A stretch of DNA of 64,000 bases from Bdellovibrionales bacterium (GTDB taxonomy: Bacteria; Bdellovibrionota; Bdellovibrionia; Bdellovibrionales; UBA1609): contig CBDHDF010000010.1 of assembly GCA_965261545.1 (NCBI GenBank), positions 480,001-544,000 of the forward strand, read 5' to 3'. The translations under genes and the position numbers were made by a program. Of this stretch, positions 25,269-54,077 are shown piece after piece. The notes beneath the pieces were generated by a model. The model saw only the letters and a program-made list of their open reading frames with translations. It was not told the origin of the DNA and made no database searches. Within the stretch, counting starts at the first letter, position 1; the number at the start of each line of letters is the position of its first letter.

Positions 25269-25950
25269 TTGACTCAATTACAATTTTTTACAAAATGGAC
25301 TTTTTCTAGCATCATCCATTTGTCTCATCATTATCAATGCTTTGGGCTGTGGAGATGGAGAGAAAAATCAATACGAATCACCCTTCAGCGATCCCTCTAC
25401 TTCTTTTATCTCTGTATGGCGGCTTGACAACGACAACGAGTCCATCACTCTTCCCTTACGCTCAGGCTATGATTATAATTTTACGGTGGATTGAGGTGAT
25501 GGCTCTTCCAACGAAATCACAGCCCATGATGACAGCGACATCACCCACACCTACACAAAGGTTGGAGATTACACTGTCATCATCTCAGGAGAGCTTGAAT
25601 CTTGGTTTTTCAACAACAGTGGGAGCAAAGATAAGATCATTTCTGTAAAGAATCTGGGAAATATGGGATGGACCAACTTGGAGGGAGCCTTTGAGGGCTG
25701 CAGTGAGCTCGTAGAAGTCATTGGAGGCAACACCTCTCGTGTGACAAATATAAATCGCATGTTTAAAGGGGCCACCTCCATAAAAAATATTGACTTCACT
25801 CCATGGGATTTCGCCCGTGTGACAGAGATAAATGAAACTTTCAGCGACTTCACACTTGCTACAAGGGTTTATAACACCCTACTTCATCGACTCCTGAGAC
25901 CTCCACTCAAGAAAATATTACCTTAGATGTGGGTAGCTCTAAGTACGACA
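25269..25950 (+). pseudogene. 5' part of a BspA/DUF285-like lipoprotein gene, split by the 28-kb insertion
   Basis: Paralogous to 54078-54868; TGG>TGA at 25492-25494, frameshifts; joins as VGSSKYD|SRAENIRQ. Confidence 0.85.
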
Positions 25951-25976
25951 CAATGCCATTCGTCTATGAAAAAGTA

Positions 25977-25982
25977 TGTCAA
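25977..25982 (-). promoter_or_regulatory. TTGACA -35 box in IS110 right end; circle junction would give TTGACA-N17-TAAATC
   Basis: Predicted junction ttgaca tactttttcatagacgg taaatc; -10 box imperfect. Confidence 0.5.
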
Positions 25983-26119
25983 GAAAATATACCTATCCAT
26001 GTTGCAAAAAATTACCATCTTTTGCTGCATACGGTCACCCGTCCTTCCGAAATCTCTCACCAAGTTCTTTCTAGCACTTCTTCTTCATGGTTAATGGCTT
26101 TTTATTTACATCTCTAAAA

Positions 26120-26330
26120 CAACATATTCCTATGATTCGTCTATTTGGACACTCTTAATTCAAGACCGGTTGGAAAATGCTCCTTCCTACAATCTTCAAT
26201 TTGGGTCATCGTAAATGTTAAGGAATAGAGGACGTACTAATCGTTTAAATGAACCTTTATGGCTATCGAATGGATTGAGCTATCTATCCTCACCTCATAA
26301 TAAAGTCATTGTCTACTTTTCGCTATATGC
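26120..26330 (-). ncRNA. Predicted bridge/seek RNA of the IS110 element (intact copy; ends approximate)
   Basis: Two stem-closed loops with guides CCATTCG and TTTAAACG (target), ATTTAC-G and ATAGACG (donor). Confidence 0.8.
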
Positions 26331-26376
26331 TTAAAGAACTACTGAGATTTTTATGAGGCTGTTTTAATATATTTTA

Positions 26377-28202
26377 GAGCCTGTAAACTATTTTGTGTAA
26401 CTGCCGAATCATATTAGGATGAACTATCATCCTGAAAGGAGAAGGCAGAATGGATATCAAGACAATAGGCAAGGAACTAGCGAAGAACGTCAAGACCCAA
26501 AAGGATTTATCCGACATAACGGGTCAACTGATGAAGGTTGTTTTAGAGACAGCTCTTAATGCGGAAATGGACGATCACCTAGGTTATGAGAGGCATGAGA
26601 AGTCTGAGACCCGCAAATCCAACACTCGCAATGGTTACAGTAGAAAGACCATAAAGGGAGAGAAAGGCGAGGTGGAGCTTCAGGTCCCCCGTGACCGAAG
26701 TGCCTCCTTTGAGCCCCAAGTCATTCCCAAAGGCAAGACTCGTCTTGAGGGCTTTGAAGACAGTATTCTGACCCTCTATGCGAGGGGAATGACGACCAGG
26801 GATATTCAAGGAGCTATCAAAGACCTCTACCATGGTGCAGAGATATCCCACTCAGTGATAGCCAACGTGACGGATGCTGTTATTGATGAAGTTACGGCTT
26901 GGCAGAACCGCCCCTTGGATAGCACTTACCCTATCGTATTTTTGGACTGTATCGTGGTGAAGGTCCATCAAGACAAGAGAGTTATTAATAAGGCGATTTA
27001 CCTAGCTCTTGGTATTACAGAGGAGGGTCAGAAAGACTTGTTGGGCCTATGGATTTCTGAAAATGAGGGTTCAAAGTTTTGGTTGAGTGTTTTGACTGAG
27101 CTGCAAAATCGAGGGTTGAAAGACGTATTTATATTTTCTGTAGATGGTCTTACAGGTTTTCCTCAAGCCATTTCAGCGGCTTTTCCCAAGTCTAAAGTGC
27201 AACTGTGCATTGTCCATATGGTCCGCAATTCCCTTCGCTATGTCCCTTCCAAGGATATGAAAGCTGTCGCCCAAGACCTCAAGTCCATTTATGGCTCTAC
27301 GACTCTGACAGAAGCTGAAAAGGCCCTTGAGGAATTTTGTACCAAGTGGTCTTCAAAGTATCCGAATATTGAAAAGTCTTGGCGTAGGAATTGGGACAAT
27401 CTCATCACTATTTTCGATTATCCGGATGAAATCAGAAAGATTTTTTATACCACAAACGCCATAGAGTCGTTAAATAGCGTGATCCGCAAGGCGATCAGAA
27501 ATCGTAAGATATTTCCCAGTGATCGGTCGGCTTTAAAAGTTGTATATTTAGCGATAAAAATGGCCTCTAAGCGATGGACACGACCATTACACAACTGGAA
27601 GCCAGCCATGAACAGGTTTGCCATTGAATACGGTGACCGTTTTGACAACTAAGTTTTTTAATAAGGTCCACCACCTGCCTTATAAGGGGGCTTAAAAGCC
27701 CCTCTAAGGCGTTGACAGAAGTACTGGAATACCGAGACTATGGTTAGGGTAATATAGTATGGGAACCTAAATACATGCCCTCTTGGTGCAGATTTGGGTT
27801 TCCATTTTTTTTCATGTTTCATCCCAATGCTGGTATTTCTCGAATATCCCAAGTTAAAAAAAATAAAAAAAAGGGGGTAATATAGTATGGGAACCTAAAC
27901 ACATGAACCCTTTGATGAGATTGGAATTTCCATTTTTTTGAGAGAGCTATTGCTGATTTTTTTCCAATCAAGATGATAATTATTTATTTGAGTTCTTTCC
28001 AGTTCTGATATGATCCCATTACGGCTCCATCTCCCCATTAAATTATAATGCATTGTGACTGACAAAATCGCTTGAAGGAAAAAATGTCAATTATACATTG
28101 ACGAATAATATGGGGCTGTGCTTTTTACTAGGAGTGGAGCCACATAAGTGGCTTTAAGATTTAAGAAAAAAATTGCAGTTACACAATTATTTTTACAGTC
28201 CC
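26377..28202 (+). mobile_element. IS256-family element
   Basis: 28-bp imperfect IRs (gagcctgtaaactattttgtgtaactgc / gggactgtaaaaataattgtgtaactgc); 8-bp TSD atatttta at 26369-26376 and 28203-28210. Confidence 0.93.
26450..27652 (+). CDS. IS256-family transposase
   Basis: RNGY, VPRDR, FLDC, VDGLTG, QLCIVH, YTTNAIES motifs. Confidence 0.95.
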   Translation: MDIKTIGKELAKNVKTQKDLSDITGQLMKVVLETALNAEMDDHLGYERHEKSETRKSNTRNGYSRKTIKGEKGEVELQVPRDRSASFEPQVIPKGKTRLEGFEDSILTLYARGMTTRDIQGAIKDLYHGAEISHSVIANVTDAVIDEVTAWQNRPLDSTYPIVFLDCIVVKVHQDKRVINKAIYLALGITEEGQKDLLGLWISENEGSKFWLSVLTELQNRGLKDVFIFSVDGLTGFPQAISAAFPKSKVQLCIVHMVRNSLRYVPSKDMKAVAQDLKSIYGSTTLTEAEKALEEFCTKWSSKYPNIEKSWRRNWDNLITIFDYPDEIRKIFYTTNAIESLNSVIRKAIRNRKIFPSDRSALKVVYLAIKMASKRWTRPLHNWKPAMNRFAIEYGDRFDN

Positions 28203-29087
28203 ATATTTTACATTTTTGTATTTCCTGTAGGGTTTAAATTTTTCTTCAGACTTCAAAACTCCTAATGCTAAAGCAGCTATTCTTCTTGAAATGGCGTTCC
28301 TGGCTTTGTGTGGTGGATAATTTCTTTCTGTAATTAACTGCTCATACCAGTCATTGAATTCATTTTTCCCACCAATAACTGTCAATGCAGCCACCTTAAA
28401 AACACATTTCATTTGCCGATGTTAGGCGCCAATTAAAATTGGCCATTTTTAGAAGCCGTCGCCAATGAAAAACGGCCAGTTGATGATGTACTGATTTAGT
28501 TATTCTTCGTTCAGAGTTTAGTCAAGTGTCTTTATTTTGCTCATCATTTAACTCCGACTATGCCACAAGATTCTGAGGAATGATTTTCTGCCCACCACTT
28601 TTGGCATGACCCCAAATGCATCCTTCAGCCCTATGGCAGAGGTAAATGGAGTATTTTTCAGGATTCCTTGGCGCAGCTAATGTCTAAAGCTCCGCAAGAG
28701 TGACGAGCAAATAGTACGGTAAAAGCCAGTTATCCATAAATTTATCCATGGCGACACTGCGGCTGTGACCCCGATGTCTAGCAACGCAGTGCTGCTGGTG
28801 TGCCCAGCACAATATAGGAGGTAACGACTATAGAAAGCTGACATGATGATGGTGGTAGGTCCACCGTTCTCGATTTACAGGAATTGGGAACAAACAACCC
28901 TAAGCTGCGCAGGGGGCAAGACCTGGGTGGTGAGCGTTAGGGAAAAGGCCAGAATAACTGGTCATGTGTAGTCTGTGAAGATGAGCGAAAGCGAACCATC
29001 GATGAGGCGTCGAAAATGCGTTAGTTGCTGTCAAAACCAAGGTCCCGGTAGTACCTTGGGATAAACTCGGAAGGTACCTGATTACTG

Positions 29088-31248
29088 GTCGAGTAGGGAA
29101 GGAGGTTTCCCCCCTTCCCCCTCCCAGAGCCGAACGTGCGCAACTAACGCATTCGGCTCCTCTGATTATAGGTTCACTGCTTGGTTGGGATAGGCGCACC
29201 GACTCTCACTAGTGTGAAAGTTTTCCAGCTTTCCTTACTAGACATTCCATTGGAATTGCTGGAAGGGGCGCCTAATCCTTGGTATGGGTAACGGGAAGCG
29301 CTTCAACAATCGGTTGTACGCCTCCCAGTTGATCTGGCGTCTTTGCGTCCTCCTCATGAGCCACTTTTTCCAAATTCTGATGACCACCCGGTAGAACCGC
29401 TTTATGTTGCGGTAGTTCCCGGGTATACCATAATAGGCATAGTGACCGTAGAGAAACTGCTGCAAACGGTTGGCTTGATGCTTGAGGGGAGCATGACGAT
29501 GCCGTTTACACCAGAGGCTTACGGATGCAAGCCCCCGATCCAGACGACTTTTCATCGTGCCTCGAAAGACAACCCAGTTTCCCTTCAGAGATTTCCTCCA
29601 TGTGTGGCTGAAACCTAAGAAGTCGAACGACTGGATTTTTCTCACGTCCCTCTCGTATCCCTTGAGGTTCGTGCGGGAAATACGGTAGGGAGGAGGGCGG
29701 AAATCTACGATCCGAGACTTCTCGGGGTGCATTGTTAGCCCAAATCGAGCAAGTCTTTTTGGCAACACCTCGTAGATTCGCCGTGCGTCCTCTTCCCTCT
29801 GGAATCCCATCACGAAGTCGTCGCAGTATCGAGCCATAAACCCGTATCCTTTGAGTCGTGGTTTGACATCCTTCTCAAACCATTCATCTAAGACATAATG
29901 GAGAAATACGTTAGCCATGAGCGGGGAAGCCACCCCACCTTGCGGTGTACCTGATATCGGCTTGGTGGTTCGCCCCTTATCCATGATCTCTGCATTCAGC
30001 CATTTGTCTATCAACCGACGGATCACTCCGTCTCGCACTCGCTTGGCGAGAATCTTACGAAGCTCAGAATGAGAGATGGTATCAAAGAATTTCTGGATAT
30101 CAATATCTAATACCCAGTAGGCTCGATGGTCCATCATTTCATTGCGAATTCCCTCTAGTGCTTGGTGGCATGATCTTCCAGGACGGAAGCCATAGGAGCA
30201 GTTGTAGAATTCCTGCTCATACACCGCTTCAAGAACCATCACGACAGCTCTTTGAGCTACCTTGTCCTCGATCGTCGGGATGCCTAGTGGGCGCAGACTT
30301 CCATCGGCCTTGGGAATGTAGTGACGTCTGATTTTGGGCGCACGATAGCTCCCAGATTTCAGGCGTCCGAGAAGATTTTGAAGATTTTCCTCAAGCTTCT
30401 CTTCGTACTCCTTCGCCGTTATGTTATCTACACCTACCGCCCCATCCTTTCGGGTGAGACGCCACGCCTCTTTCAACCAATCTATGGTGATAAAGTGGTT
30501 GAGGGAAATTATAGCTTTGCCCTTCGTGTGTCTCGCTATCTCTGCTATCCGAGATTTTTTCGTTGACACTATCTTGGTTGGATTCAATGTTCCTCCTAAT
30601 GTTTCAAAATACTCGAGTCTATAATCAGGTTAGCCCTTCCCTCGTTTGGGTCCCCTGCAAGTTCAGGTTCCCCACTCTCAACGGTACTATGGCTACCTCC
30701 GACTCCCTACAACCCATCGCCAGTCCCTTATTGATTCGTTGTGGCTACCTTGGCACGGAGATTCTTTTCGCTGCGGGTTCTGACATCTCCGTTTGCAGAA
30801 CTCGCCCTAGGTTTTTTTTCACAGGATACCGACCTGCTTGCACGCCTCGGAGGTTGTAGGGCCTCCTGTGTTACTAGGTCACCTCGATACACATTCGCCC
30901 CGCTCTACGACCCCGGCAGAATTCACACGACCTCGCTCATCTATGGGCGTGCAAATGTTGCCCCCCATTCTCGACACTCGAAGGGCTTCTGCAATTTCGT
31001 TCTGTTTCGTGGCTCAATCACGCGGCTTTTGCATCGCTGTTTACGCTTTACGGATGTTGTTCCACCTCCCACCCCTCACCATTCGGTGTCGAGGTTTCAT
31101 GATGTCCGTGTCCGCACAAAACTCGCTTCCAGTCGGGTGAGCTAGCCCTTACTGGGTGGGGTTCCAACCCACAAGATGACTTCAAAGGATTTCAAAACTT
31201 CATTTCCTATTCCATTCATTCCTCCTTTCTAGCCTTTGCACAGCGCAC
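29088..31248 (-). mobile_element. RT-encoding group II intron nested antisense in the ORF-less intron
   Basis: 5' GTGCGCTGTG; domain V gagccgaatgcgttagttgcgcacgttcggctc; 3' ctactcgac. Confidence 0.92.
29238..30587 (-). CDS. ltrA: Group II intron reverse transcriptase/maturase, no evident endonuclease domain
   Basis: RPLGIPT, SYGFRPGRS, GTPQGG, RYCDDF (YCDD variant), FDFLGF. Confidence 0.93.
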   Translation of the reverse strand: MNPTKIVSTKKSRIAEIARHTKGKAIISLNHFITIDWLKEAWRLTRKDGAVGVDNITAKEYEEKLEENLQNLLGRLKSGSYRAPKIRRHYIPKADGSLRPLGIPTIEDKVAQRAVVMVLEAVYEQEFYNCSYGFRPGRSCHQALEGIRNEMMDHRAYWVLDIDIQKFFDTISHSELRKILAKRVRDGVIRRLIDKWLNAEIMDKGRTTKPISGTPQGGVASPLMANVFLHYVLDEWFEKDVKPRLKGYGFMARYCDDFVMGFQREEDARRIYEVLPKRLARFGLTMHPEKSRIVDFRPPPYRISRTNLKGYERDVRKIQSFDFLGFSHTWRKSLKGNWVVFRGTMKSRLDRGLASVSLWCKRHRHAPLKHQANRLQQFLYGHYAYYGIPGNYRNIKRFYRVVIRIWKKWLMRRTQRRQINWEAYNRLLKRFPLPIPRIRRPFQQFQWNV

Positions 31249-32990: not shown

Positions 32991-33166
32991 CATAGGTGTT
33001 CGTGGTTTTTTTCTAATTTTAATTCCGAATTAATGGAAATACTTTTCAAGCCTCCTTTTTTACATAGAGGGAAGTGGGCGATTTATAAATATTTATAGAT
33101 GGTATTTTGAGAAATGGACGCAGATTGACATTTGATATCCACGACAAGCCATGTGTTTTAAGAGAC

Positions 33167-33631
33167 TTAATTGTGTAACGAAAGAACTGTGGACTTTTGG
33201 GAACAACAGAATTTAAATTTCTTTCCACTTCCGCATGGACAGGATTGATTTCTTCCAATTTTTTCGCTTTGGTCATTTTTCTGCTGTGATGCAGACATAT
33301 CTTCAGTTACAATTTTTTTTTGCTTTTCATCTTCCAAATCCTCATCCAAATTATCAAAAAGAATATCTCCTAGATTCTGGTGAAAGTAACGATTTTTAAA
33401 TTGAGATATGAGCATCATAAAAATACATGTAAGAACCAAAAGTGTGAGTGAAGCAAAAAACAAAGAAGATGCTTGCATCTGAGTTAATGGGAGGATGAGT
33501 GCCAGTAAATAACCAAATCCAAATACCAATAAGGAAATAAGAAGAGATATAAAGGATCCCAAAGAAAGTAATATTAAAAGTCCAAAAATCATTGCTATTT
33601 TTTGCTCCTGTCGAATACAATGAATCCGCAT
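33167..33631 (-). CDS. Membrane protein with C-terminal SEC-C motif (IS4-B passenger)
   Basis: Hydrophobic helices; GRNQSCPCGSGKKFKFCC. Confidence 0.8.
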   Translation of the reverse strand: MRIHCIRQEQKIAMIFGLLILLSLGSFISLLISLLVFGFGYLLALILPLTQMQASSLFFASLTLLVLTCIFMMLISQFKNRYFHQNLGDILFDNLDEDLEDEKQKKIVTEDMSASQQKNDQSEKIGRNQSCPCGSGKKFKFCCSQKSTVLSLHN

Positions 33632-33736
33632 AGATACAAGTGAGTTATCTACAGACTTAATGATTCTCGCGTTAGTATCTTAATAGGTCAAGATTAATTG
33701 GAGGAAATTTTTATTTTTTAAACGCAGGGGGCAAAT

Positions 33737-34981
33737 ATGAGCACGGAAGCTCAAACACTTAAAACGATCAAAAAATGTTTCAAGAAAGTTATTCCTGAAA
33801 AGGACTCTCGGGCAACCATTCCACCTCTTGAGTTTATTGTGGCTCTTGTCTTGTCATTCCAGGGAGACTCTAAGACATATTCAATAGAGGGAATTAGGAG
33901 GTTTATGATAAGTCATTTAGGATTAAGAATTGAAAGACACAGCTTCTGGGAAAGACTCTCTAGAAAAAGATTAAAAGAGCTTCTGAGTAAACTGGTTGAA
34001 ATGCTCATGATAAAGCTATCTCATGGAGCTTTTCATGGGAGCAAAGCCATATTATTACAACTGGGAGTCTCAGACGTTCTTCTTGTTGACTCAAGCACAA
34101 TAAGCCTTTGGGATGGAGCATCTGAGAATTTTCCAGGGACAAGAACAAACGCAGGAATTAAATGGCACGCTTGTTTCAGTTTATTCAGTGGTATAATGAC
34201 TTGGTTCGAATTAACTCCGTCTTCCACTAACGATAGGAAGTGCTTTCCTGATATAAAGGAACTCGTTGGAAAATTAGTCATCTTTGATTTGGGATATTGG
34301 GACTATGGCTTATTGTCATCTATTCATGAAGCTAAAGGATTTTTCTTGTCTAGAGTAAAGTCAAATGCCTCTATTCTTATTGATGCTGTTGTTGAAGGTT
34401 TGCCAGATTACTATGTTGGAAAAGAGTTCTCTGATATTAAACTCAAGAAAAAAAACGATGTTGTTGAATTTATAGGCAGTGTCTTGTCCAATGGTAAATG
34501 GGTAAGTTTGAGAATTGTAGGCTTCTGGAATTCCTCCGAAAAACGCTATCATTGGTATTGCACGAATTTAGATGTGGCAGCGGAGTCCATATATCCAATT
34601 TATCGTTTACGTTGGCAATGTGAACTTATTTTCAAATCTTGTAAGAATTCTTTGAATGCAAATCAGATCACCTCAAACGATCAAAATATCATAGAGAGTC
34701 TTCTTCTTGCTTCATTAGCGGCTCACCTCACATCAAGTGTTGTTTTGAGGATAGGAAGAACTAAACTCAATAAGGAACAAAATGACTCCACATCGTTTCA
34801 AAGAGTTGCTAAGGTTACCGTCTTATTAGCCTCTGATTTTATCAAATATCTCCTAAGCTCATCTCAAAAGTATTTAAATATTTTGATAGAGAAGATCAAG
34901 ATATTCTCCCATGAAATTTATGACACAAACTACCGACGGCGAAAAACATCAATGAATATGGCTAAAAAGGTCTTGCTATGA
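33737..34981 (+). CDS. IS4-family transposase
   Basis: LLVDSS, IFDLGY, YRLRWQCELIFK (YREK motif). Confidence 0.93.
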   Translation: MSTEAQTLKTIKKCFKKVIPEKDSRATIPPLEFIVALVLSFQGDSKTYSIEGIRRFMISHLGLRIERHSFWERLSRKRLKELLSKLVEMLMIKLSHGAFHGSKAILLQLGVSDVLLVDSSTISLWDGASENFPGTRTNAGIKWHACFSLFSGIMTWFELTPSSTNDRKCFPDIKELVGKLVIFDLGYWDYGLLSSIHEAKGFFLSRVKSNASILIDAVVEGLPDYYVGKEFSDIKLKKKNDVVEFIGSVLSNGKWVSLRIVGFWNSSEKRYHWYCTNLDVAAESIYPIYRLRWQCELIFKSCKNSLNANQITSNDQNIIESLLLASLAAHLTSSVVLRIGRTKLNKEQNDSTSFQRVAKVTVLLASDFIKYLLSSSQKYLNILIEKIKIFSHEIYDTNYRRRKTSMNMAKKVLL

Positions 34982-35008
34982 AAGAATAAAAAACCACGAA
35001 CACCTATG

Positions 35009-36559
35009 AACCTTTATGGCTATCGAATGGATTGAGCTATCTATCCTCACCTCATAATAAAGTCATTGTCTACTTTTCGCTATATGCTTAAAGAACTACT
35101 GAGATTTTTATGAGGCTGTTTTAATATATTTTACATTTTTGTATTTCCTGTAGGGTTTAAATTTTTCTTCAGACTTCAAAACTCCTAATGCTAAAGCAGC
35201 TATTCTTCTTGAAATGGCGTTCCTGGCTTTGTGTGGTGGATAATTTCTTTCTGTAATTAACTGCTCATACCAGTCATTGAATTCATTTTTCCCACCAATA
35301 ACTGTCAATGCAGCCACCTTAAAAACACATTTCATTTGCCGACAAGATCTAGAGTTTTTCTTTCCATAAATTTTTCCACCACTAACTCTAGCCAGCTTCA
35401 CTAGTCCACAGTAACTCCACCAAGAATTGCGTTCAAATCGATGAGGGTCTACAACACGAGCTACGATTTTAACAGCATTGATGTGTCCAATTCCTGGAAT
35501 TCCCTGGAGGTGTTTAATTTCTTTGTGTTTTCTGGCCAGTCTCTTGAATTCTGCGTCATAACGCTTCTTCTCTTCTTCATAAAAGGCAATGCTCGTATCC
35601 AATCCAAGGAGTACGAATATATCTTCTGATCTTTTTAACTCTGTTTTTTTCTTCGCATTTTCATGGGAGGCTCGAAACAATGCTGATCTCTGGTTTTTGC
35701 TTCGAACTCCTGCTTTGATAACATCTTCATATCCACTGATAATTTTTCTAAGATAAATAAAATCATCCCCTGAATGAAAGACTCTTTTTAAAAGACCTGA
35801 ACGCAACAGATGAACCAGCTTCTGAGCATCAATTTTATCATTCTTGGGTCCCTCACTCAGTAATTTATTGCGACAGGGATCACAAATCAAGAGTTCATCA
35901 ACATGATCTTTTAACTCTGTATATAGCCACTGTGAAGCCGTACTTTCTTCAATGGTGAGAGCTTTTGTGCCTTTAAGACTCTTCAAGTAGATTTGGAGTT
36001 CACTAACATCAGCTTTCACATCAGTGGCCTTGATGGCATTAGATTTGGCTGTCATTCTTGCAATGGCCATGTTGCTTTGCGCCCAGTCAACGGCGATATA
36101 ATGATCGTACTTCATAGGTTCCTCCTCCTTAGGTGGTTCTTTGTAACTAAATTTGTTCTCTGCCATTCATTGTAATAATAAATTTTTCGCCTGCTTATCG
36201 GTTTTTGGCTTGCTCGTTTGGGGCCTCTCACCCGTGAGAGGAGGCCCCAGCGAGCAAGGGAAAGAGTGAAAGATGCGCTGCACTCCCCAGTCCGTCTAGC
36301 GAAGCGGCAATTAGAGTGACAGACGCGGAGCGGCTGGCCACGATAATTGAGGACTGGGAAAAGAGTGCTAAGCATCTTGATCGGCTGTCTACATCTAAAT
36401 TGTGTGAGGGCAACCAAGTTCCTAAGCGATTTCTGTACTTTAGTCACATTTAAATGCTTGAAGTTCTCTTGGGGAACTCGGAGGCTCAAGACTATTTTTT
36501 TTGCATATGGCATGTATGTTTGAACGAGACTTTGGGTGACCATCTTTTTCGATTTACCG
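35009..36559 (-). mobile_element. IS110-family element copy R, 5' part (rest at 53562-54057)
   Basis: CG core at 36558-36559 abutting cttaag of the IS4-A IR. Confidence 0.9.
35108..36115 (-). CDS. IS110-family DEDD recombinase, intact (start placed at MKYDH after an aggagg RBS)
   Basis: AVDW, IEES, KNDKIDA (DEDD); GIPGIG; YCGL...SGG catalytic Ser. Confidence 0.92.
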   Translation of the reverse strand: MKYDHYIAVDWAQSNMAIARMTAKSNAIKATDVKADVSELQIYLKSLKGTKALTIEESTASQWLYTELKDHVDELLICDPCRNKLLSEGPKNDKIDAQKLVHLLRSGLLKRVFHSGDDFIYLRKIISGYEDVIKAGVRSKNQRSALFRASHENAKKKTELKRSEDIFVLLGLDTSIAFYEEEKKRYDAEFKRLARKHKEIKHLQGIPGIGHINAVKIVARVVDPHRFERNSWWSYCGLVKLARVSGGKIYGKKNSRSCRQMKCVFKVAALTVIGGKNEFNDWYEQLITERNYPPHKARNAISRRIAALALGVLKSEEKFKPYRKYKNVKYIKTAS

Positions 36560-36679
36560 CTTAAGAATGGTTGAATTTATCCTAAGAAAGGTGTTGTTTT
36601 AGCAAATAAAATATGTGACATTATTTTTAAAGGAGCATTGGAGACTTCAAAATTTTAAATTTACAAAGGAGCGAACAAA

Positions 36680-37925
36680 ATGACAAGTTCGCGTCACAAA
36701 CCACAAGAATATTATTTCTTATTTACCCAAAGAATTCAACAAGAATCACTGCGTTAATGAAAATAAAACTCTAAGAAACAGGAAAATCACCCCAAAAATA
36801 TTTTTCTTTTTCATTCTTCAACTCGCCTGCAATATGACCTTTGCAGGTTACTCCTCAAATGCCCAAATACTTCAAACCCTTATTGAGGAGTTTCCCTCTC
36901 TTGCACAAAGCTCTTTATGTGTCTTCAGACAAAAAATATCCTTTTATTTTTTTAAAAATATTTTCGACAATCATCTCAAAGACTCTTGGGGGGCACTAAA
37001 AACTTATCAAGGATTTCACCTTGTAGGCATTGATGGAGACGAATATAGCCTTAGTGCGACAGGTGATGCGTTGGAGCAAGGGTATCGTGGTCGCGGGGCT
37101 CCTGAAGATAAAGAGACTTATTATCCACGCATGTATGTTGTAAAAGCTATTCATTTACTATCTGGAGTCATCTGCGGATTTTATCATGCAAATACCTGTA
37201 ATGAGATTCTAGGAGCCTTAGGAATTTTAGAAAATTTACCCCAAAAAATCATTGCTGTTTATGATAGACTCTACTTATCAAAGGACTTGCTACAAGCACA
37301 TCAAGTTCATGGTAGCTATTTTATCTTCCGCTGCAAAGTAGGGTCTACATTTAAAGAGATAGTTAATTTTGCGGCAAGCCATATGAGAACAGCAGATGTT
37401 GTCTTAGATGGTGTGAGTGTACGGCTGATAAAGATCAAAAATCCTAAGACAGGCAAAGATTTGGTCTTTGCCACAAATCTTCCTAAAAAGAATTGGAGTA
37501 AGAAGAAGATCGAACAAATTTATCAACTTCGTTGGGAGTGTGAGACCAGTAATAGAGATCACACTCTTTCTATAAATATGGAATCCTTGCATTCAAAAAG
37601 TATTAATGGAGTCTTACAAGAGCTGTATGCCTCATTCATTCTTAATAATATGCTCCGCCTAGAAGCTCATGAAAATGGAGGTTTCGAGGTAAGTCCAGAT
37701 ACTCCCATTACGAAGAAAGTTAATTTTAAATTTTTAGTAGAAATGTCTTTTGATTGGTTGGAAAAGATATGGTTTGAAAAAATTGAGGAATTTGTGAATC
37801 TGATGAAAAATCTTGTTACAAAAAATATCTCAAAGAGAAAGAGGATGTCAAGATGGTACGAAAGAGAGATTAAAGGATGTAGGAAGTCCTATAAAAATAG
37901 TGCTCTTGTTGTTCGGAGGGTTTAA
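36680..37925 (+). CDS. IS4-A transposase; ATG at 36680 is out of frame with the main ORF (+1)
   Basis: GIDGDE, VYDRLY, YQLRWECE; stop codon lies inside the IR. Confidence 0.8.
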
Positions 37926-37926
37926 A

Positions 37927-39148
37927 CGGTAAATCGAAAAAGATGGTCACCCAAAGTCTCGTTCAAACATACATGCCATATGCAAAAAAAATAGTCTTGA
38001 GCCTCCGAGTTCCCCAAGAGAACTTCAAGCATTTAAATGTGACTAAAGTACAGAAATCGCTTAGGAACTTGGTTGCCCTCACACAATTTAGATGTAGACA
38101 GCCGATCAAGATGCTTAGCACTCTTTTCCCAGTCCTCAATTATCGTGGCCAGCCGCTCCGCGTCCGTCACTCTAATTGCCGCTTCGCTAGACGGACTGGG
38201 GAGTGCAGCGCATCTTTCACTCTTTCCCTTGCTCGCTGGGGCCTCCTCTCACGGGTGAGAGGCCCCAAACGAGCAAGCCAAAAACCGATAAGCAGGCGAA
38301 AAATTTATTATTACAATGAATGGCAGAGAACAAATTTAGTTACAAAGAACCACCTAAGGAGGAGGAACCTATGAAGTACGATCATTATATCGCCGTTGAC
38401 TGGGCGCAAAGCAACATGGCCATTGCAAGAATGACAGTCAAATCTAATGCCATCAAGGCCACTGATGTGAAAGCTGATGTTAGTGAACTCCAAATCTACT
38501 TGAAGAGTCTCAAAGGCACAAAAGCTCTCACCATTGAAGAAAGTACGGCTTCACAGTGGCTATATACAGAGTTAAAAGATCATGTTGATGAACTCTTGAT
38601 TTGTGATCCCTGTCGCAATAAATTACTGAGTGAGGGACCCAAGAATGATAAAATTGATGCTCAGAAGCTGGTTCATCTGTTGCGTTCAGGTCTTTTAAAA
38701 AGAGTCTTTCATTCAGGGGATGATTTTATTTATCTTAGAAAAATTATCAGTGGATATGAAGATGTTATCAAAGCAGGAGTTCGAAGCAAAAACCAGAGAT
38801 CAGCATTGTTTCGAGCCTCCCATGAAAATGCGAAGAAAAAAACAGAGTTAAAAAGATCAGAAGATATATTCGTACTCCTTGGATTGGATACGAGCATTGC
38901 CTTTTATGAAGAAGAGAAAAAGCGTTATGACGCAGAATTCAAGAGACTGGCCAGAAAACACAAAGAAATTAAACACCTCCAGGGAATTCCAGGAATTGGA
39001 CACATCAATGCTGTTAAAATCGTAGCTCGTGTTGTAGACCCTCATCGATTTGAACGCAATTCTTGGTGGAGTTACTGTGGACTAGTGAAGCTGGCTAGAG
39101 TTAGTGGTGGAAAAATTTATGGAAAGAAAAACTCTAGATCTTGTCGGC
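37927..39148 (+). pseudogene. IS110 copy L, 5' part with truncated recombinase
   Basis: Near-identical to copy R (few SNPs seen); cut by IS21-A at 39148. Confidence 0.9.
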
Positions 39149-51157: not shown

Positions 51158-51543
51158 AATACATTGAATATTTTGGAATGAAGTTCTCTCCTTTTAATGA
51201 CAATCTTAAATCCAAAGACCTTATGTCTTTACCTGGAACAATGGCAGTGAAAGAGAGATTGGATTATGTTCTTTCCATTGGTGGAATTATGGTCGTCACC
51301 GGCGATGTTGGCACCGGAAAATCCACCGCCATGAGATGGAGTTTAGATCAATTCCACAAATCTGAAATTAACAGCTGTTATGTGACGGCGAACAGTGGCT
51401 CAACCAGTGAGCTATATAGACAATTGTGTTGGAGTATAAATTTAAATTTAAGAGGAAACCATAGGTCCTTCCTTCTTAAGGAATTCAAAGAAGCCATCTC
51501 AGAAATATTAGAACAACAAAGAAATAAAATTGTGGTTATCATT
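51154..51543 (+). pseudogene. ExeA-like AAA+ ATPase, 5' half
   Basis: YFGMKFSPF, GDVGTGKS; rest at 32980-32567 (minus strand). Confidence 0.85.
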
Positions 51544-51570
51544 CATAGGTGTTCGTGGTTTTTTATTCTT

Positions 51571-52815
51571 TCATAGCAAGACCTTTTTAGCCATATTCAT
51601 TGATGTTTTTCGCCGTCGGTAGTTTGTGTCATAAATTTCATGGGAGAATATCTTGATCTTCTCTATCAAAATATTTAAATACTTTTGAGATGAGCTTAGG
51701 AGATATTTGATAAAATCAGAGGCTAATAAGACGGTAACCTTAGCAACTCTTTGAAACGATGTGGAGTCATTTTGTTCCTTATTGAGTTTAGTTCTTCCTA
51801 TCCTCAAAACAACACTTGATGTGAGGTGAGCCGCTAATGAAGCAAGAAGAAGACTCTCTATGATATTTTGATCGTTTGAGGTGATCTGATTTGCATTCAA
51901 AGAATTCTTACAAGATTTGAAAATAAGTTCACATTGCCAACGTAAACGATAAATTGGATATATGGACTCCGCTGCCACATCTAAATTCGTGCAATACCAA
52001 TGATAGCGTTTTTCGGAGGAATTCCAGAAGCCTACAATTCTCAAACTTACCCATTTACCATTGGACAAGACACTGCCTATAAATTCAACAACATCGTTTT
52101 TTTTCTTGAGTTTAATATCAGAGAACTCTTTTCCAACATAGTAATCTGGCAAACCTTCAACAACAGCATCAATAAGAATAGAGGCATTTGACTTTACTCT
52201 AGACAAGAAAAATCCTTTAGCTTCATGAATAGATGACAATAAGCCATAGTCCCAATATCCCAAATCAAAGATGACTAATTTTCCAACGAGTTCCTTTATA
52301 TCAGGAAAGCACTTCCTATCGTTAGTGGAAGACGGAGTTAATTCGAACCAAGTCATTATACCACTGAATAAACTGAAACAAGCGTGCCATTTAATTCCTG
52401 CGTTTGTTCTTGTCCCTGGAAAATTCTCAGATGCTCCATCCCAAAGGCTTATTGTGCTTGAGTCAACAAGAAGAACGTCTGAGACTCCCAGTTGTAATAA
52501 TATGGCTTTGCTCCCATGAAAAGCTCCATGAGATAGCTTTATCATGAGCATTTCAACCAGTTTACTCAGAAGCTCTTTTAATCTTTTTCTAGAGAGTCTT
52601 TCCCAGAAGCTGTGTCTTTCAATTCTTAATCCTAAATGACTTATCATAAACCTCCTAATTCCCTCTATTGAATATGTCTTAGAGTCTCCCTGGAATGACA
52701 AGACAAGAGCCACAATAAACTCAAGAGGTGGAATGGTTGCCCGAGAGTCCTTTTCAGGAATAACTTTCTTGAAACATTTTTTGATCGTTTTAAGTGTTTG
52801 AGCTTCCGTGCTCAT
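51571..52815 (-). CDS. IS4-family transposase (same protein as 33737-34981)
   Basis: Identical translation in the ORF track. Confidence 0.93.
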   Translation of the reverse strand: MSTEAQTLKTIKKCFKKVIPEKDSRATIPPLEFIVALVLSFQGDSKTYSIEGIRRFMISHLGLRIERHSFWERLSRKRLKELLSKLVEMLMIKLSHGAFHGSKAILLQLGVSDVLLVDSSTISLWDGASENFPGTRTNAGIKWHACFSLFSGIMTWFELTPSSTNDRKCFPDIKELVGKLVIFDLGYWDYGLLSSIHEAKGFFLSRVKSNASILIDAVVEGLPDYYVGKEFSDIKLKKKNDVVEFIGSVLSNGKWVSLRIVGFWNSSEKRYHWYCTNLDVAAESIYPIYRLRWQCELIFKSCKNSLNANQITSNDQNIIESLLLASLAAHLTSSVVLRIGRTKLNKEQNDSTSFQRVAKVTVLLASDFIKYLLSSSQKYLNILIEKIKIFSHEIYDTNYRRRKTSMNMAKKVLL

Positions 52816-52920
52816 ATTTGCCCCCTGCGTTTAAAAAATAAAAATTTCCTCCAATTAATCTTGACCTATTAAGATACTAACGCGAGAATCATTAAGTCTG
52901 TAGATAACTCACTTGTATCT

Positions 52921-53385
52921 ATGCGGATTCATTGTATTCGACAGGAGCAAAAAATAGCAATGATTTTTGGACTTTTAATATTACTTTCTTTGGGATCCTT
53001 TATATCTCTTCTTATTTCCTTATTGGTATTTGGATTTGGTTATTTACTGGCACTCATCCTCCCATTAACTCAGATGCAAGCATCTTCTTTGTTTTTTGCT
53101 TCACTCACACTTTTGGTTCTTACATGTATTTTTATGATGCTCATATCTCAATTTAAAAATCGTTACTTTCACCAGAATCTAGGAGATATTCTTTTTGATA
53201 ATTTGGATGAGGATTTGGAAGATGAAAAGCAAAAAAAAATTGTAACTGAAGATATGTCTGCATCACAGCAGAAAAATGACCAAAGCGAAAAAATTGGAAG
53301 AAATCAATCCTGTCCATGCGGAAGTGGAAAGAAATTTAAATTCTGTTGTTCCCAAAAGTCCACAGTTCTTTCGTTACACAATTAA
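52921..53385 (+). CDS. SEC-C motif membrane protein (IS4-B passenger)
   Basis: Identical translation to 33167-33631. Confidence 0.8.
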   Translation: MRIHCIRQEQKIAMIFGLLILLSLGSFISLLISLLVFGFGYLLALILPLTQMQASSLFFASLTLLVLTCIFMMLISQFKNRYFHQNLGDILFDNLDEDLEDEKQKKIVTEDMSASQQKNDQSEKIGRNQSCPCGSGKKFKFCCSQKSTVLSLHN

Positions 53386-53561
53386 GTCTCTTAAAACACA
53401 TGGCTTGTCGTGGATATCAAATGTCAATCTGCGTCCATTTCTCAAAATACCATCTATAAATATTTATAAATCGCCCACTTCCCTCTATGTAAAAAAGGAG
53501 GCTTGAAAAGTATTTCCATTAATTCGGAATTAAAATTAGAAAAAAACCACGAACACCTATG

Positions 53562-54057
53562 CATAAAGGTTCATTTAAACGATTAGTACGTCCTCTATTC
53601 CTTAACATTTACGATGACCCAAATTGAAGATTGTAGGAAGGAGCATTTTCCAACCGGTCTTGAATTAAGAGTGTCCAAATAGACGAATCATAGGAATATG
53701 TTGTTTTAGAGATGTAAATAAAAAGCCATTAACCATGAAGAAGAAGTGCTAGAAAGAACTTGGTGAGAGATTTCGGAAGGACGGGTGACCGTATGCAGCA
53801 AAAGATGGTAATTTTTTGCAACATGGATAGGTATATTTTCTTGACATACTTTTTCATAGACAGCAAAAGATGGTAATTTTTTGCAACATGGATAGGTATA
53901 TTTTCTTGACATACTTTTTCATAGACAGCAAAAGATGGTAATTTTTTGCAACATGGATAGGTATATTTTCTTGACATACTTTTTCATAGACAGCAAAAGA
54001 TGGTAATTTTTTGCAACATGGATAGGTATATTTTCTTGACATACTTTTTCATAGACG
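53562..54057 (+). mobile_element. IS110 copy R right end, with the 3' part of the split bridge RNA
   Basis: Reverse complement of 25961-26261 plus three extra 65-bp units; CG core at 54056-54057. Confidence 0.9.
53796..54055. repeat. Exact 65-bp tandem repeat, 4 copies
   Basis: cagcaaaagatggtaattttttgcaacatggataggtatattttcttgacatactttttcataga x4. Confidence 0.97.
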
Positions 54058-54077
54058 AATGGCATTGAAGTACGACA

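Follow-up and report, generated by a model that had tools for sequence, protein, structure and literature searches.

The minus strand of positions 26291-26125 of the window (the whole stretch of DNA analysed, 64,000 nucleotides) very probably, at a rough probability of 0.9, carries a guide-RNA gene, of the bridge RNA or seekRNA kind, within the right end of an IS110-family element that is 1,840 bp long and has the IS1111 layout. The sequence-level features of published seekRNA and bridge RNA systems appear to be present: there are two covarying loops closed by stems, and the target guides overlap at the core and covary with the target. As in the IS110 family, the protein has domains PF01548 and PF02371, the D/E/D/D residues and the Ser of an SG motif, and insertion is site-specific and without target duplication. 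The original prediction of a natural bridge system aimed at the ends of an IS4 insertion sequence (IS) is supported by the recombinase domains, by the covarying fold and guides, and by the location of the target in IS4-family repeats. Bridge RNAs and seekRNAs were described in 2024 (PMC11187229, PMC11208160, PMC11208158); the system is real but of a kind already known, and the understanding of how such systems work is unchanged.

Probable guide-RNA gene and recombinase

On the minus strand, 26291-26125 reads as two internal loops, each closed by a stem. Loop 1 is closed by GAGGA (26291-26287) with TCCTC (26232-26228) and holds the words CCATTCG and TTTAAACG, one on each side of a small hairpin, with the 8-nt word about 18 nt after the 7-nt word. 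Loop 2 is closed by TATTCCT (26227-26221) with AGGAATA (26131-26125) and holds ATTTAC-G and ATAGACG, one on each side of a longer hairpin. The words of loop 1 correspond to both strands of the target TTTAAA-CG-AATGG, and those of loop 2 to the joined ends of the element itself. All of the motifs that had been predicted were found in place on the minus strand, and the features read as follows.

26125-26291, minus strand: probable structured core of the bridge/seekRNA gene, from the sequence, a fold with both closing stems and a conserved structure in 49 relatives
26291-26228, minus strand: putative target-binding domain, part of the structured core
26227-26125, minus strand: putative donor-binding domain, part of the structured core
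26267-26273, minus strand: right target guide CCATTCG, complementary to the target top strand CG-AATGG
26242-26249, minus strand: left target guide TTTAAACG, with the same letters as the top strand TTTAAA-CG and hence complementary to the bottom strand
26210-26216, minus strand: right donor guide ATTTAC-G, matching GTAAAT of the left end, without one core C
26135-26144, minus strand: left donor guide ATAGACG (26144-26138) followed by AAT, 10 nt identical to the 3' junction ATAGA-CG-AAT
25961-26124, minus strand: remainder of the right end, with an internal AAAAGATGGT repeat, the subterminal inverted repeat, CATAGA and the core CG
About 25982-25969, minus strand: subterminal inverted repeat of the right end
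25968-25963, minus strand: left donor flank CATAGA
25962-25961, minus strand: core CG

The left donor guide matches perfectly over 7 nt, or 10 nt when the flank is included. The match of the right donor guide covers 6 nt and one of the two core bases, and the full word is found in relatives. When the 361-nt 3' non-coding region was shuffled 20,000 times with dinucleotides preserved, the four guide words never occurred together (0/20,000), and singly they occurred 267, 180, 2731 and 578 times. The minimum-free-energy fold of 26300-26115, computed from this single sequence, yields both closing stems; its stability was not greater than that of shuffled sequences (z = +0.12 for 26300-26115 and -0.43 for the whole 3' region). 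Rfam searches with the RNA region and the 5' end of the element found no relevant family, only parts of nearby group II introns and a chance snoRNA match.

The extent of the element was obtained from a genome search with the RNA region and the neighbourhood of an IS110-type ORF, which gave 1,840 bp counting one CG, with the left end CG-GTAAATCGAAAAAGATGGTCA and the right end ...TTGACATACTTTTTCATAGA-CG. Its subterminal inverted repeats read GTAAATC-GAAAAAGATGGTCA on the left and TCTAT-GAAAAAGTATGTCA in the reverse complement of the right end; relatives have TGAGAAAGnnGGTC at either end. Not counting the core, the terminal extensions measure about 6 and 4 nt, compared with the published 7 and 3 for IS1111. 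From the recombinase stop codon to the end of the element there are 390 nt of non-coding DNA, within which all guides lie. The predicted position of the RNA downstream of the recombinase thus stands for the element, but at the RNA locus itself the gene has been reduced to its final 73 codons (28419-28203), with a 1,826-bp IS256-family insertion (26377-28202) between these and the RNA.

The recombinase ORF of a sister copy (36166-35108) encodes 352 amino acids from the first ATG, or 335 if M18 is the start, a length based on relatives that align from about residue 18. Its Pfam matches are the RuvC-like DEDD domain PF01548 in the N-terminal part, at 33.1 bits (cut-off 29), and PF02371 in the C-terminal part, at 40.7 bits (cut-off 21.3), and its best NCBIfam match is "IS110 family RNA-guided transposase" at a score of 102, below the model cut-off of 140. 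Residues D27, E73/E74, D110, D113 and S262-G263 are invariant in 32 aligned homologues. Among its relatives, a solved structure exists only for the IS621 transposase, with E = 4.9e-5 in the C-terminal domain, where the SG aligns to the ESGSS stretch of IS621 (S241 region); the N-terminal alignment alone scores 0.2 bits and is not significant. The context of the SG motif, GLVKLARVSG, keeps the G, L, S and G of the IS1111 logo GL-P----S(T)G and has K in place of P. Identity to plasmid-borne IS110-family genes does not exceed 27%, and the plasmid search yielded no named close relative. By its subterminal inverted repeats, its putative downstream RNA and the order of the guides, with the top-strand guide before the bottom-strand guide, the element is classed as an IS110-family element with the IS1111 layout.

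From published work on IS621, ISEc11 and ISPa11, the RNA would be expected to bind the DEDD/Ser recombinase and to pair with the target and the circular donor simultaneously, and recombination would take place at the C(G) core.

Target ends and copies in the genome

The junctions that had been inferred proved to be real, and both empty sites lie on contig C4. The 5' junctions read TTTAAA-CG-GTAAAT (window 37921-37934) and CTTAAG-CG-GTAAAT (36565-36552, minus strand), and the 3' junction reads CATAGA-CG-AATGGCATTG, followed by unrelated DNA, in nine cases. The empty sites TTTAAACGAATGGCATTG and CTTAAGCGAATGGCATTG are the two ends of one 1,391-bp IS on C4. CG is present at both junctions and at both empty sites, and there is no duplication beyond this common CG. 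The host IS on C4 has the terminal inverted repeats CAATGCCATTCG(C/T)TTAA(G/A) and a 10-bp duplication, and its transposase, of 363 amino acids with a DDE_Tnp_1 domain, has its best matches in IS4-family models, as expected from the prediction that IS4 ends are the target. Since the empty sites are both ends of this IS, the insertion point lies 10 bp plus CG inside each end repeat, and in every case the 3' end of the element points toward the tip of the IS. The genome has 13 tips with the word CAATGCCATTCG: 10 are followed by the right end of the element or a remnant of it, two are empty (on C4) and one is followed by something else. The C4 copy, the sole intact host IS, is unoccupied at either end.

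Two natural targets are available against which the four guide words of this IS1111-layout bridge/seekRNA can all be read: one is perfect and the other, the CTTAAG end, has one mismatch and one wobble. The latter count had been predicted and the arithmetic is correct: pairing with the left guide would involve a U-G pair and an A-C mismatch. A third variant of the left flank, CTTAAA, is present on contig C11. Insertion splits the end repeat of the host IS and so should disable that end.

A separate repeat, present in 34 copies in the genome (e.g. C7:83999), contains GGTTAAACGAATGCC and has 11 contiguous nt in common with the target. No junctions of the element with this repeat were found in the genome, a hint that the outer positions of the guides are important.

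The RNA locus lies in a nest of mobile elements made up of the following parts.

25941-25950, plus strand: host-IS target-site duplication AAGTACGACA, with its partner at 54068-54077
25951-25960, plus strand: outer 10-bp tip (CAATGCCATT) of the host-IS terminal inverted repeat, severed from its IS by insertion
26376-25961, minus strand: RNA-bearing 3' part, element positions 1425-1840
26377-28202, plus strand: IS256-family element with transposase at 26450-27652 (PF00872, E = 1e-121) and an 8-bp duplication, ATATTTTA
28203-28419, minus strand: recombinase remnant, element positions 1216-1432 and residues 275-347, cut at 28420 by another IS
35006-36557, minus strand: sister copy, element positions 1-1552, with the intact 352-aa ORF (36166-35108) and an IS4-type insertion between the two target guides
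36560-37926, plus strand: host-IS interior, with the 363-aa DDE transposase at 36834-37925 and the element in both terminal inverted repeats
37929-39148, plus strand: 5' part, element positions 1-1220, originally joined to the RNA-bearing 3' part, as seen from the TCGGC duplication and matching IS ends
53562-54067, plus strand: 3' part of the sister copy, element positions 1540-1840, with three extra tandem 65-bp right-end units and the host-IS tip at 54058-54067

The IS256-family insertion breaks the recombinase ORF 26 nt short of its end. The IS that cut the recombinase gene has its ends (TGTTAG..) at 28420 and 39149 and is flanked by the 5-bp duplication TCGGC. The IS4-type element between the two target guides is about 2 kb long, with a 414-aa transposase and the ends CATAGGTGTTCGTGG. 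Its copies at 32991-35009 and 51543-53561 are mutually inverted, with their duplications AATGATAACC and CATAAAGGTT swapped, and because of this the segment 35010-51542 is taken to have been inverted by recombination. When the inversion is undone, a single host IS is obtained with the element in both end repeats. As AAGTACGACA flanks it at 25941-50 and 54068-77, the 28 kb of 25951-54067 are one nest derived from one host IS, and the later insertions into 25941-54077 are of IS256-type, IS4-type and group II intron elements.

The IS4-type element also has a second ORF of 154 amino acids, divergent from the 414-aa transposase and with a C-terminal CPCGSGKKFKFCC motif. A group II intron at 28851-31164 adjoins the recombinase remnant, with Rfam domain matches and a 449-aa reverse transcriptase at 29238-30587.

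Elsewhere in the genome, a full-length copy on contig C2 is interrupted at element position 1524/1525 by an insertion of 2.2 kb, and 3' or 5' fragments of the element are also present on C11 and C2. Two copies have kept the ORF and have an insertion inside the target loop of the RNA (at element positions 1524/1525 and 1540-1552), and two have kept the RNA gene and lost the ORF (the RNA locus at 26125-26291 and C11:784845-785290). None of the copies in the genome has gene and RNA both intact. The original prediction implied an intact copy at the RNA locus, which is not what was found: the recombinase gene is destroyed there. Logan contigs of three runs from a source-like sample (X1-X3) join 26368 to 28203 over the IS256 site; this fits other copies without the IS256 insertion and is no proof of an intact copy. 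On a contig from a second study (X5), 26007-26202 is unchanged. None of the sequencing runs listed as containing the stretch is an RNA run.

Smaller pieces were also noted. At C2:598948-599037 there is a mini-element of about 80 bp, in which the first 21 nt of the left end run directly into the final 63 nt of the right end over a common AAAGATGGT, and its flanks are still TTTAAA-CG and CG-AATGGCATTG. Left ends or fragments of diverged relatives are found at C10:837028, C10:246672 and C10:577708-577776, with the left flanks GGCTATCTC-CG and TTTCATTTCCC-CG; among these is a 69-nt stretch of 87% identity that lies within another IS110-type element.

The element departs from its relatives in two respects. 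The right donor guide of relatives holds the whole core, as ATTTATCG where the ends start ATAAAA and as ATTTACCG or ATTTGCCG where they start GTAAAT, whereas here it reads ATTTACG, one C short of ATTTACCG, as had been predicted. Irregular pairing of the right donor guide is also described for IS621 (PMC11208158), where two bases are flipped out and there is a G-T pair. Secondly, the base after the CG of the left target guide equals the first base of the left end in 34 of 36 relatives; here it is A as opposed to G. All copies in the genome have both departures and are 99.6-100% identical to each other, so that the element spread with them, and did so recently.

The explanation that competes best, at odds only a little under even, is that the RNA gene is dead: it would have guided an active element in the past, whose family has since become extinct in this genome, and nothing functional would now be made. 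This would fit the interruption of every copy, with target-loop insertions in those that bear the ORF and no ORF in those that bear the RNA, as well as the vacancy of the intact host IS on C4, the imperfect donor guide and the interruption by IS256 of the gene upstream of the RNA. It sits less well with the recent spread of near-identical copies and with the presence of a pair of intact ORFs alongside a pair of intact RNA genes; in published systems, RNA provided in trans is functional (PMC11187229). A minus-strand sequence at 26399-26371, which spans the end of the IS256 element and the element itself, also resembles a promoter, although such a match is within chance expectation. Because no copy has gene and RNA both intact, present activity of the putative guide RNA would need complementation in trans.

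Conserved fold, guide covariation and core asymmetry in relatives

Searches with the recombinase gave 1444 proteins at E <= 1e-20, which points to a widespread uncharacterised subfamily with a conserved RNA architecture that could be mined for programmable recombinases. The closest of these proteins have 64-78% identity to the recombinase. A scan of genome contigs gave 80 homologous loci at 41-63% identity, and a metagenome scan with the single recombinase protein returned distant relatives only, at no more than 48% identity. Guides in the relatives were located by anchoring on the conserved ATAGRCG words. At 56 of the 80 loci, ATAGRCG was found internally about 200 nt past the stop codon and again 100-260 nt further on, as the terminus ..CTTGACnnACTTTnnnATAGR-C(G/A); the other 24 ran off their contig or fell outside the pattern, and L084 and L133, in which the second word was mis-assigned, were also left out. 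The 56 loci share a common layout, with the right target guide at about +75 nt after the stop, the left target guide at about +105, the right donor guide at about +135, the left donor guide at about +200 and the end of the element at about +340-430.

Folding and covariation across homologues, which had been proposed as a check of the original prediction, bear it out, with compensatory pairs in 49 relatives and target guides that follow the flanks. The RNA regions of the relatives could be aligned well. A structure of six helices, including both closing stems, was drawn by hand from the alignment and counted on 49 distinct rows; RNAalifold predicted no pairs on the gappy alignment of relatives. 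In the 24 pairs of this structure, 87.7% of cells are paired, compared with at most 51% when the partners are slid, and 20 of the 24 pairs have changes on both sides. Compensatory cells number 154, compared with 48 +/- 7.5 in shuffles, none of which (0/500) reached as high a count. At the position of the left donor guide, ATAGRCG is invariant in the 49 aligned relatives.

Agreement between guides and flanks was examined in 47 loci with distinct loops. The right target guide window has 7 or more nt in common with its own core and right flank, taken as the reverse complement, in 38 of 44 loci, compared with 25 of 1880 mismatched pairs, and the left target guide window shares at least 7 nt with its own left flank and core in 14 of 33 loci, compared with 2 of 1054; the relatives are kin, and mostly metagenome-assembled, so that these counts are not independent trials and overstate independence. 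The donor words are nearly constant among the relatives, and the element ends likewise. By these comparisons, the words of the first loop track the flanks across relatives, in an unambiguous direction. In decayed copies in one related genome (G008) a similar RNA is found, but the agreement of guides and flanks is gone. In one relative (L063:1-1667) the DNA past the 3' end of the element repeats the region of its own left target guide (CCCGTTTAGCCCCCC), which may be a self-insertion or the assembly wrap-around of a short contig.

These data bear on a second explanation, according to which the protein alone picks the target and the guide-like words arose at the DNA level as by-products, for example as scars of nested insertion or partial target duplications. 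The words are indeed short (6-8 nt) and the nest of mobile elements is rich in duplicated fragments, but words that occupy homologous loop positions of a compensatory fold in 49 relatives and follow the flanks are not expected of scars, and the words were not found together in any shuffle; this explanation is very improbable.

The core is asymmetric in some relatives: of 50 distinct ones, 15 have CA at the 3' junction and CG at the 5' junction and in both left guides, and 10 of these 15 have CA in the right target guide. The loci with a CA junction are L068, L077, L083, L091, L094, L095, L099, L103-L106, L110, L115, L122, L131 and L132. The asymmetry is systematic, and a simple exchange outside the dinucleotide core is no explanation for it. 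That the subfamily exchanges strands inside the apparent dinucleotide core was considered on the basis of these sequences and is unlikely; if true, it would make this a lineage with a strict core of one base and a different geometry of exchange, and the element would in addition be a hyperparasite, with nearly all host-IS ends occupied and a single intact host copy left. The running of the left target guide into the first base of the left end, noted above for 34 of 36 relatives, resembles the product-matching "handshake" of IS621, which lies on the right guides and would here be placed on the left guides.

At 53861-54057, the joins of the three additional tandem 65-bp right-end copies read CATAGA-CA-GCAAAAGATGG and fall at an internal site similar to the left end (AAAAGATGGT). 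These units may be a product of the recombinase at an internal pseudo-end.

Comparison with known systems

The closest likeness is to the IS1111-type seekRNA elements ISEc11, ISPa11 and ISKpn4. As described by Siddiquee et al. 2024 (PMC11187229), these likewise have a non-coding region downstream of a DEDD transposase gene, subterminal inverted repeats with short asymmetric terminal extensions and no duplication beyond the common core, and the transposase here would be of about 335 amino acids with the M18 start. In their seekRNAs, too, the top-strand match lies 5' of the bottom-strand match and the two overlap at the insertion point; by the same account this order marks the IS1111 type and is reversed in the IS110 type. 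The element differs in a protein remote from the characterised members, in the K for the P of the logo, and in an extra, long 5' non-coding end.

With the IS621 bridge RNA, as presented by Durrant et al. 2024 (PMC11208160) and Hiraizumi et al. 2024 (PMC11208158), the RNA would share a target loop and a donor loop, in each of which the left guide addresses the bottom strand and the right guide the top strand, with the core in both. Irregular donor pairing (PMC11208158) is a further likeness. In contrast, the RNA lies here in the right end, where that of IS621 is in the left, and the order of guides within the loops is reversed. The core here is C-G, or C-A in some relatives at the 3' junction, as opposed to CT in IS621, and the proteins are similar only at the level and in the C-terminal domain given above.

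The 5' non-coding end of the element (window 36167-36557, minus strand) is 391-442 nt long, compared with about 50-160 nt in relatives, and is partly GC-rich with the hairpin GGGGCCTCCTCTCACGGGTGAGAGGCCCC; a 143-aa ORF spans it. A working guide RNA in this end, as in the IS110 group, with the 3' region serving merely as a recombination end, would fit its unusual length (391 nt before the first ATG) and GC-rich hairpin but is the least probable explanation of all, since no target or donor words were seen there by eye, the four words and the conserved fold are all in the 3' region, Rfam gave no relevant match and the 143-aa ORF has no Pfam family.

The guide-RNA gene in the 3' region would direct its element to the ends of another mobile element, and the novelty that the original prediction attached to an RNA-guided parasite of another IS was overstated, because the repeats of IS1384 and of Tn21-family transposons are already published as targets. 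Integration of IS1383 into IS1384 inverted repeats is reported by Muller, Lauf and Herrmann (2001), and that of IS4321/IS5075 into the terminal repeats of transposons of the Tn21 family by Partridge and Hall (2003). No more specific case of IS ends as targets came out of a full-text search. In these cases, as here, an element of the IS110/IS1111 family has the terminal inverted repeat of another mobile element as its target. The present system, which adds to the few cases of a mobile element specialised on the ends of another, differs from them in that the host is an IS4-family IS in a genome of an uncultured type and that the guide words can be read against both host ends.
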